Shown here piece by piece: positions 23,806-24,618 of a stretch of DNA of 29,255 nucleotides. Within the stretch, counting starts at the first letter, position 1; every line of letters begins with the position of its first letter. A program made the translations under genes and the position numbers. The notes beneath the pieces were generated by a model, which searched no databases, had not been told where the DNA came from, and worked only from the letters and a program-made list of their open reading frames with translations. The DNA lies in the IMG/VR virus record IMGVR_UViG_2713896774_000001, positions 1-29,255 of that record; one strand, 5' to 3'. This DNA comes from a virus (taxonomy: Duplodnaviria; Heunggongvirae; Uroviricota; Caudoviricetes).

Positions 23806-23808
23806 AAA

Positions 23809-24159
23809 ATGAAAAAACTCATCCTGATGATTGCTTGCAGCTCTTTTGCCTTGGCGGGCGTGGCTCATGCTGATTCCCAGTGTGGGCCTTTCCACTTGGG
23901 CACGAGCCCGACAAATGATGGATGGGCACGGATTAACGGTGCGAATCCTGAAAGTCAGAAGGTAACGTTCCTTAAGCAAAAAGAAGACTACGAGAACATT
24001 AAGATGGAATGGCGCATGGCTACTGACCAGCCTGGCCGGTGGATAGGGCTCGAATACATCAAGCGTAACGGCAAAGCCATTCTCAACGCTCAGTGGCTGC
24101 AAGCCAACATGAACGCTCCACGTCAGTATGCTACTTACGACTGTATAAAAGTTAACTGA
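23809..24159 (+). CDS. Small secreted protein of unknown function (cargo gene 1, 116 aa)
   Basis: Classical Sec signal peptide (MKKLILMIACSSFALAGVAHA, then DSQ); two Cys in the mature part (near the N-terminus and near the C-terminus). Starts 3 nt after the upstream stop. Confidence 0.7.
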   Translation: MKKLILMIACSSFALAGVAHADSQCGPFHLGTSPTNDGWARINGANPESQKVTFLKQKEDYENIKMEWRMATDQPGRWIGLEYIKRNGKAILNAQWLQANMNAPRQYATYDCIKVN

Positions 24160-24178
24160 TTACTACATCGAGGAAAAA

Positions 24179-24565
24179 ATGATTCGAATTTTACTTATGC
24201 TAGGGATGGTGCTTACATCTTTCATTTCGAATGCAGAAGTTAAGATAAGTTATGATCAATTGACGGGTAGCCAGTCAGTGAAGGGACTGAGCGACGCCAA
24301 TCTTGAGGGATGTGAACTTCATGAAGGTTTGGCAGTGGCAAAAGGAACACAATATTCTGACAGTGGAGCCACTATAAAATTAATAAGATTCCAGGGTGTT
24401 GGTAGTAAAGTTTTTGTCATTCCTACTGGCTTTGAAGAATTATCAAAAAATGATAACGATATAGTTAATAGCATGATTAATATTGGTGAGCCTTATTTTA
24501 TTAGGTTTACAGCTTGTGGTAGTGGTGGTTTTTTAAAATTAGTTGACCTTTATAAGATAGGTTGA
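24179..24565 (+). CDS. Small secreted protein of unknown function (cargo gene 2, 128 aa)
   Basis: Signal peptide (MIRILLMLGMVLTSFISNA, then EVK), two Cys in the mature part, strong ribosome-binding site (GAGGAAAAA-ATG). Visibly AT-rich relative to the flanking tail genes. Confidence 0.7.
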   Translation: MIRILLMLGMVLTSFISNAEVKISYDQLTGSQSVKGLSDANLEGCELHEGLAVAKGTQYSDSGATIKLIRFQGVGSKVFVIPTGFEELSKNDNDIVNSMINIGEPYFIRFTACGSGGFLKLVDLYKIG

Positions 24566-24583
24566 AATATATATGTTTTAGAT

Positions 24584-24607
24584 AAGCCGCATATAGCGGC
24601 TTTTTTT
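24584..24607 (+). terminator. Intrinsic terminator after the cargo pair
   Basis: AAGCCGC-ATATA-GCGGCTT followed by TTTTTTT, 19 nt after the cargo gene 2 stop and just before the spike gene ATG at 24619. Confidence 0.7.
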
Positions 24608-24618
24608 ATGGGGTTTTT

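Follow-up and report, generated by a model that had tools for sequence, protein, structure and literature searches.

Why would a phage keep two genes for apparently exported proteins, closed by a terminator-like hairpin, in the middle of its baseplate operon? We address this question for a 29,255-nt stretch of viral DNA (IMG/VR record IMGVR_UViG_2713896774_000001, Caudoviricetes; hereafter the window), in which two open reading frames (ORFs), named ORF1 and ORF2, lie between the baseplate hub gene, whose stop is at 23805, and the spike gene, which starts at 24619. A preliminary description of the window, exact in its ORF coordinates (23809..24159 and 24179..24565), had read the pair as a single cargo cassette for secreted proteins that brought its own terminator. 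Comparison with related loci leads us to another reading, i.e., the hub-spike interval is a two-slot accessory site within the late operon and, on balance, probably a nested unit for exported proteins that would act at the cell envelope. Slot 1, behind the hub gene, holds ORF1, and slot 2, between the ORF1 stop and the hairpin, holds ORF2 as one of many alleles.

Slot 2 as a hypervariable cargo position

Escherichia coli prophages with hub and spike genes that are 95-97% identical to those of the window (DNA level) align to it only in these two flanks (72% query coverage). In four loci inspected closely, slot 2 shows a different content each time, namely a 633-bp hypothetical gene, a 321-bp gene for a small secreted protein, an opposite-strand DUF4236 gene and a Phd/Doc toxin-antitoxin pair. 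When the DNA from the ORF1 stop to the hairpin is clustered by k-mers, 108 loci fall into about 40 clusters, and four loci (L021, L029, L116 and L118) have an empty slot 2 of 11-18 nt. The cargo also stands out by its G+C content (GC), which is 0.35-0.46 compared to 0.47-0.55 for the flanks in 27/29 loci. ORF2 itself, described beforehand as AT-rich against its neighbours, has a GC of 0.36 (0.26 at third codon positions, GC3) compared to 0.55 for the hub gene and 0.57 for the spike gene, i.e., it is compositionally foreign cargo.

Most slot-2 cargo is without any match. Identifiable are Phd/Doc, DUF4236, a Clp-protease-like gene and a candidate defence gene, the latter encoding a 289-aa protein of a Pantoea ananatis locus (L038) that matches the PADLOC candidate defence family PDC-S42 with an E-value of 1.7e-36. 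About 260 bp downstream of this gene, the same locus has an ORF of 171 aa that includes hydrophobic stretches; a small ORF separates the two. The slot-2 alleles of three further loci (L002, L037 and L033) encode small proteins, unrelated to ORF2, with signal-peptide-like N-termini and at least two Cys; secreted proteins therefore recur in slot 2.

ORF2 is a minority allele that is found in 5/74 of the loci selected via the hub protein (see below). In every locus examined, it is flanked by the slot-1 gene and the spike gene, where the slot-1 gene is either the window-type ORF1, an ORF1 with 65% identity (in Citrobacter phage Omnitron) or a lipoprotein-fused form. Window-type ORF1 (at least 94% identity), in turn, is paired not only with ORF2 but also with Phd/Doc and at least four other cargoes. 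Judged from these sequence comparisons, ORF2 is true swappable cargo, one of about 40 alternative slot-2 alleles. The left border of the exchange is the conserved 3' end of ORF1; on the right, the spike flank sequence ...TTTTTATGGGGTTTTTATG is kept in different cargo alleles. A mobile-element origin of the cargo was rejected since no flanking direct or inverted repeats are present.

The ORF2 protein is conserved in C45, QYSDSG, PTG and C113-GSGGF. A word-indexed search recovers four clusters of relatives and an exhaustive HMMER scan 42 representatives, which form a family of secreted proteins of 125-155 aa, in which the Cys pair is invariant and the motifs QFSxSG, PTN and CGSGGF are shared. 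Named members stem from gamma- and betaproteobacteria and are all annotated as hypothetical; the family has no match in Pfam, in PADLOC or among PDB sequences. Family genes are located among the accessory genes beside the tailspike gene of Klebsiella phage RothD, and further relatives belong to small, functionally unassigned operons elsewhere. A Klebsiella variicola locus (L129; CP103420.1, locus 300-8250) carries, at the same hub-proximal site, an island of about 7 kb that includes an ORF2-family gene together with P22 immI-like genes (Arc/Mnt repressors, P22_AR_N antirepressor, Bro-N), a YafO toxin gene and an EACC1-like gene.

Slot 1 as a fixed position for exported proteins

In the four loci inspected closely, a 112-116-aa ORF1 homologue is always located directly behind the hub gene. 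These homologues are 64-93% identical, with diverged signal peptides and a near-invariant C-terminal half of the mature protein, and the family alignments place most of the variation in the first half of the mature protein. In the window, ORF1 starts 3 nt past the hub stop; in some alleles it overlaps this stop.

Two surveys cover the wider distribution. The first consists of loci found via ORF1, with one locus per species (n=26), from Pantoea, Serratia, Rahnella, Yersinia, Kosakonia, Klebsiella and other genera. ORF1 is downstream of the hub gene in 26/26, mostly directly (the distance is larger in L027 and L031), and where the retrieved DNA extends that far, a gap of 58-1789 bp separates it from the spike gene. 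The second survey selects loci via the hub protein alone, i.e., independent of ORF1, and comprises 80 of 359 viral contigs, 74 of which include the spike gene. Here, ORF1 is found directly behind the hub gene in 69/74 loci. For 10 of these 69, the ORF1 domain forms the C-terminus of a 296-aa protein with the canonical lipobox LLVTGC; a 296-aa lipoprotein of this kind is also seen in L006, L008 and L028. The other 5/74 (L049, L060, L070, L119 and L121) have an unrelated lipoprotein of about 241 aa in slot 1, with lipobox FLTSC or SLTGC and no Pfam match. Given ORF1 in the former and a lipoprotein in the latter, slot 1 encodes an exported protein in all examined relatives. The identity tables give no sign that ORF1 type and spike type vary together; for most loci, the retrieved DNA does not reach the tail-fibre genes. 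A Pseudescherichia vulneris locus (L031, ~1290-2900) has a tandem of ORF1-family genes, made up of a typical copy and a strongly diverged one that keeps both Cys.

Those sequenced phages in which ORF1 homologues are found are all temperate myoviruses of enterobacteria, e.g., Omnitron, several Klebsiella prophages, vB_EcoM-683R1 and Mulock. Salmonella phage BP63, Aaphi23 and Acinetobacter phage Ab105-1phi share the order of the baseplate genes, with the spike gene directly next to the hub gene; the neighbourhood that the preliminary description had envisaged for genomes without the pair is thus seen in distant phages. In Pam3, plug, hub and spike are gp18-gp20 (PMC11633184). Further contents of this position are a 342-bp gene at the ORF1 position of Yersinia phage YP3, an opposite-strand gene between hub and spike in Burkholderia phage BgManors32 and a 325-bp gap in Vibrio phage CP-T1. 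Since distant phages have hub and spike adjacent, we regard ORF1 as an old insertion that was fixed in one clade and not as a universal baseplate component. The reading of ORF1 as part of a cargo cassette is not supported: within the clade, the gene is syntenic in nearly all relatives, a situation that the preliminary description itself had named as speaking against its reading, and its GC of 0.50 shows no clear deviation from the flanks.

Pseudomonas phage E217 encodes the 177-aa gp42 (L136, 7595-8128) between hub gp41 and tail tip gp43. It is unmentioned in the E217 structure paper and has no place in the virion model; the latter also applies to Pa193 gp43, its would-be counterpart, which is likewise located between hub and tail tip. 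E217 gp42 has no signal peptide; it is therefore a different kind of protein and was ruled out as an ORF1 counterpart.

Export signals and protein models

Signal peptides were scored by a purpose-written rule-based check (n-h-c regions, small residues at -3/-1). In both N-termini, the n-region is basic, the hydrophobic core is uncharged and the cleavage site is of the AxA type. Cleavage is predicted between AHA and DSQ after residue 21 of ORF1 (signal peptide residues 1-21, 23809-23871) and between SNA and EVK after residue 19 of ORF2 (residues 1-19, 24179-24235). The check is passed by ORF1, ORF2, 58/58 ORF1 relatives and 30/35 ORF2 relatives; among the five failing ones, three carry a signal-like segment that is preceded by an over-long called N-terminus, whereas two have no such segment and seem 5'-truncated. 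Only 2/32 other window genes pass, one of which encodes a protein of the lysis cassette that matches DUF2570 and has a hydrophobic segment at its N-terminus. The mature proteins have two Cys each, invariant within either family (C25/C112 in ORF1, C45/C113 in ORF2). The Sec signal peptides and Cys pairs first proposed for the window are thus conserved across the relatives, and ORF1 and ORF2 look like Sec-exported proteins, i.e., predicted substrates of signal peptidase I (SPase I). The ribosome-binding site ascribed to ORF2 is likewise present, with GAGG 5 nt upstream of the ATG. ORF1 was also considered as a lipoprotein itself; this was rejected, as its residues 7-10 (MIAC) are not conserved in the family and the A-x-A site followed by D is.

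An AlphaFold2 model of ORF1 from 58 sequences has a predicted local distance difference test score (pLDDT) of 86.5 and consists of an N-terminal helix, which is the signal peptide, followed by eight antiparallel strands. That is, mature ORF1 models as an 8-stranded beta-barrel with Cys25 and Cys112. PHROG 3443 (function unknown) is its sole family match; nothing significant is found in the viral structure library or among PDB sequences, and neither the Pfam avidin domain nor the biotin-binding residues of the avidin family are recovered. For both proteins, we find no match to PADLOC-DB 2.0 hidden Markov models at E <= 0.1. A sequence or fold match to the periplasmic lysozyme inhibitors MliC/PliC, PliG and Ivy was not found either. 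This is in accordance with the preliminary description, in which neither family was recognised; no named family is matched by ORF1 or ORF2.

A covarying hairpin before the spike gene

The hairpin AAGCCGC-ATATA-GCGGCTT (stem 24584-24602) has 7 bp, 5 of them G-C, and its T-run reaches to 24607. A simple scan of the 4.2-kb stretch finds 6 terminator-like sites with 4.4 expected, which is not above chance, so the case for the hairpin rests on comparative evidence. A hairpin with T-tract is located at most 65 nt from the spike ATG in 111/113 loci, the four empty sites included; one of the remaining two has a hairpin with a 9-nt loop such that only L016 is without. Among 24 distinct versions, 95% of the stem cells are paired and 4/7 pairs show compensatory double changes (e.g., C-G to G-C, C-G to A-U), a covariation level that is reached by 0/500 shuffles and by no slid control. 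As a G+C-rich stem-loop with U-tract that is conserved as a structure, the site has the features of an intrinsic (Rho-independent) terminator. Rfam yields sub-threshold matches only for the region, and these overlap the hairpin.

The aligned versions thus show the hairpin to be a fixed, covarying feature of the site, for which termination is the predicted role. The hairpin with T-tract at 24584..24607, proposed beforehand to close the unit, is therefore real. That the insertion brought it along does not agree with its presence at the empty sites, though the stem version is indeed specific to the cargo allele: AAGCCGC/GCGGCTT is found only with ORF2. As the hairpin is constant at the site and its exact sequence moves with the cargo, the right recombination border would be the T-tract plus the spike start.

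A candidate promoter inside the hub gene

A consensus scan places a candidate promoter, TTTATA-17 nt-TATACT, within the 3' end of the hub gene, with the TATACT -10 hexamer 103 nt upstream of the ORF1 ATG. Taken alone, this match is at chance level. Codon conservation was assessed for 47 hub genes with less than 95% identity at the DNA level in 196 conserved-residue columns. The hexamer corresponds to the codons of Tyr320-Thr321, for which TAT is kept in 100% and ACT in 98%. This is the most codon-conserved adjacent pair of all 196 columns, while the next best pair scores 0.80. Furthermore, ACT (Thr321) takes the top rank when only residues with four- to six-fold degeneracy are considered (111 columns). 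The 17 hub genes that diverge most keep TAT in 16/16 and ACT in 16/17, while the neighbouring Gly and Asp codons vary freely. There is therefore a nucleotide-level constraint exactly on the -10 hexamer, which suggests TATACT as a candidate embedded promoter for ORF1 and the cargo.

Proposed model and competing explanations

According to the two-slot reading, the embedded promoter in the last 130 nt of the hub gene and the hairpin terminator would bracket a small nested transcription unit of ORF1 and cargo, which would be expressed from the repressed prophage and stop short of the spike gene. In lambdoid phages, the Q-modified polymerase of late transcription passes intrinsic terminators. During lytic growth, Q-modified RNA polymerase may hence read through the hairpin and leave the late operon intact, which would reconcile a mid-operon terminator with the expression of the downstream baseplate genes. 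Cargo alleles would be exchanged by homologous recombination in the conserved 3' half of ORF1 and in the T-tract plus spike start. ORF1 and ORF2 would be exported via Sec, acquire a single disulfide bond per protein and have their site of action in the periplasm or at the outer membrane.

Regarding function, our best guess is an envelope-acting exclusion or host-interaction factor. Superinfection exclusion at the envelope step is a tentative assignment that we hold at well below even chances. It is prompted by slot 1 always encoding an exported protein or lipoprotein, by the toxin-antitoxin and defence-like slot-2 alleles and by the likeness to known proteins: Spackle, Llp, Cor and HK97 gp15 are phage proteins of similar size, location and gene position that act in exclusion. 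Decidedly more speculative, and in our view quite unlikely, is that ORF1 represents a hitherto unrecognised class of phage periplasmic beta-barrels giving self-directed immunity, fixed in the baseplate operon of an enterobacterial temperate myovirus clade. If true, ORF1 would bind a tail-delivered periplasmic component (the tape measure SLT domain or the spike) and block the genome entry of related phages, and would thus match T4 Spackle in function though not in fold. The lipoproteins found in slot 1 of other loci would then have solved the same task convergently, and ORF2 would, like the other secreted proteins of slot 2, broaden the envelope defence to cover other phages.

Several observations weigh against the model. 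The window ORF1 is without a clear Shine-Dalgarno sequence, which other alleles do have; together with the start 3 nt past the hub stop, this suggests translational coupling and late expression. The -35 element of the candidate promoter is weak (4/6) and less conserved, and the inference rests on one hexamer. The 19-nt spacer between ORF1 and ORF2 is too short for a promoter, i.e., ORF2 has none of its own. The ORF2 structure model, built from four sequences only, is poor (pLDDT 54.7). Finally, neither ORF has a Pfam, NCBIfam or solved-structure match by sequence; as PADLOC provides none either, the exclusion role is an argument by analogy only.

The main rival, to which we assign a small but appreciable probability, takes ORF1 for a lytic-cycle protein that is made from the late transcript, exported and active at lysis or release, with the hairpin tuning stoichiometry or stabilising the mRNA. 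Possible roles are to neutralise the transglycosylase domain of the tape measure protein, to mask receptors or to stop progeny from re-adsorbing to debris. An ORF1 start that abuts or overlaps the hub stop, the near-normal GC, the fixation in the clade and the SLT domain of the tape measure protein agree with such a lytic periplasmic role. On the other hand, the synonymous constraint on TATACT and a terminator even at empty sites fit a separate transcription unit, and distant relatives with lysozyme-type tape measure proteins are without ORF1.

It is improbable that ORF2 is a host-interaction or virulence factor, e.g., an OB-fold binding subunit, rather than anti-phage. The OB-fold matches of ORF2 are a hint only, because fold matches of a model with so few sequences and such a pLDDT are unreliable, and no partner A subunit is present. 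Furthermore, other slot-2 alleles are toxin-antitoxin and defence-like, and homologues are found among phage accessory genes (Klebsiella phage RothD, K. variicola prophage).

Near-universal synteny between two baseplate genes and the apparent translational coupling could also point to ORF1 as a structural or assembly component of the baseplate, whose hydrophobic N-terminus is not cleaved. We consider this very improbable: all 58 relatives have n-h-c regions and the conserved A-x-A site before D, with a signal region that diverges freely, and the domain is both found fused to a canonical-lipobox protein and replaceable by an unrelated lipoprotein. Moreover, phages with the same baseplate have no such gene (BP63, Aaphi23, Ab105-1phi and Pam3 with gp18-gp20, PMC11633184).

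Least tenable is a joint arrival of ORF1 and ORF2 as a lysogenic-conversion cassette with its own terminator, for which the adjacent, co-oriented exported-protein genes, the hairpin behind them and the stem found only with the ORF2 allele would speak, but ORF1 occurs with many other cargoes and at empty sites, ORF2 follows three slot-1 forms (window-type, 65%-identical and lipoprotein-fused), GC differs (0.50 vs 0.36) and the hairpin is present in 111/113 loci, i.e., the two genes do not form a single cassette.

Genomic setting of the site

The genome that hosts the two-slot site is a temperate myovirus that is lambdoid in regulation (Q antiterminator, S-type holin). Within 3628-8829, the window has a lambdoid early/late junction, which is joined to an E217/Pam3-type simple-baseplate contractile tail module (Table 1). 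With regard to Pfam E217_GP41, the hub protein stays sub-threshold with 25.9 bits (cut-off 27). The spike protein matches the Pfam spike N-terminal domain (E-value 9e-42) and has an Apex motif.

Table 1. Features of the window at and around the hub-spike interval
Feature	Position	Strand	Remark
KilAC antirepressor, YbcO, RusA, phage metallopeptidase, DUF2280	within 3628-8829
Q-family antiterminator	5286-5669
Lambda S-type holin	6161-6484
DUF2570 protein	6928-7320
Tape measure protein gene	19798-21813		SLT domain
Dit-like protein gene	21813-22439
Pam3_gp18-like plug gene	22436-22741
Baseplate hub gene	22744-23805	+	left flank; PHROG 196 baseplate hub, E 5e-84
Candidate promoter TTTATA-17 nt-TATACT	23678-23706	+	consensus scan; -10 hexamer 23701-23706
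ORF1 (slot 1)	23809-24159	+	116 aa
Slot 2	24160-24583	+	ORF1 stop to hairpin; holds the ORF2 allele here
Shine-Dalgarno GAGG of ORF2	24170-24173	+	within the 19-nt spacer behind ORF1
ORF2 (cargo)	24179-24565	+	128 aa
Terminator-like hairpin and T-run	24584-24607	+
Spike gene	24610-25359	+	right flank; ATG 24619; GGGG ribosome-binding site 24610-24613
Sheath initiator / gp25-like gene	25359-25712
Baseplate_J gene	25713-26912
DUF2612 gene	26909-27589
Large ORF	27571-28830		relatives have a tail-fibre gene there

Beside the features discussed so far, we note three further observations. First, an alternative spike allele of 212 aa (L006, L011, L022 and others), which is without the Apex motif and 66-67% identical, replaces the 246-aa form, with flanks that are otherwise near-identical. 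Second, a 42-51-aa DUF6889 ORF of related loci follows the tail assembly chaperone gene and overlaps the start of the tape measure gene behind it, i.e., the usual layout of a programmed frameshift product; the equivalent interval in the window is 19195-19808. Third, the left end of the window (42-2314) looks like a complete IS66-type element. It contains, on the minus strand, an IS66-family transposase of 512 aa (Pfam DDE_Tnp_IS66, E-value 2.5e-104), with two small ORFs (1629-1976 and 1973-2314) just upstream of it in the same orientation.

Relation to known systems and significance

HK97 gp15 as well as lambda bor and lom are examples of lambdoid morons. The site resembles these in that a small accessory gene or gene pair is located between late structural genes that are adjacent in other phages, with a terminator behind; ORF2 deviates in base composition, and a Q-type antiterminator in the genome can explain read-through. 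In contrast to them, the site has two slots, one for a clade-fixed exported protein and one that is hypervariable, the candidate promoter is within the upstream structural gene, and the proteins are unrelated to the known examples. Related to the moron definition (Juhala et al. 2000, as cited in bioRxiv 10.1101/2024.10.15.618418), a position between otherwise adjacent genes is observed both for ORF2 (empty sites) and for ORF1 (BP63, Aaphi23, Ab105-1phi). As for an own promoter, there is the consensus match with synonymously constrained -10 and none between ORF1 and ORF2, and for an own downstream terminator the predicted hairpin terminator (111/113 loci, covariation). Base composition is deviant for ORF2 (0.36 vs 0.55-0.57) and not for ORF1 (0.50).

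P2-like phages have the hotspots old/tin and Z/fun, with Z/fun downstream of a baseplate gene (Rousset et al. 2022, PMC9122126; bioRxiv 10.1101/2024.10.15.618418). Both there and here, a defined tail or baseplate position carries alternative accessory, defence and toxin-antitoxin cargo between conserved flanks. The site of the window differs by its E217/Pam3-type simple baseplate with lambdoid regulation, its hub-to-spike position, its much smaller islands (0-2.1 kb) and a conserved covarying terminator as the right border.

T4 Spackle, T5 Llp and phi80/N15 Cor are periplasmic or outer-membrane superinfection-exclusion proteins, with Spackle being helical. The likeness to ORF1 and ORF2 is that of small exported phage proteins or lipoproteins, several of them encoded beside tail genes. 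Unlike Spackle, ORF1 has an all-beta barrel model, and neither ORF1 nor ORF2 matches a solved structure by sequence. Avidin/calycin-like 8-stranded beta-barrels are also among the closest known systems.

A limited literature search found no description of a hub-spike accessory junction. The moron or tail-hotspot organisation is known already; particular to the site are the phage group, the junction, the fixed slot for an exported protein and the terminator as border. Current ideas on phage morons and hotspots are not overturned by it. What it adds is a compact, sharply bounded hotspot with about 40 small cargoes, mostly unannotated, plus a toxin-antitoxin pair and a candidate defence gene. The constrained promoter-like hexamer within a structural gene provides a testable example of how accessory genes may be expressed within a silent late operon. 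Given its cargo diversity, the site is a practical place to seek new envelope or defence functions of prophages, for which the ORF1 barrel family and the two-Cys family of ORF2 are the obvious first candidates.

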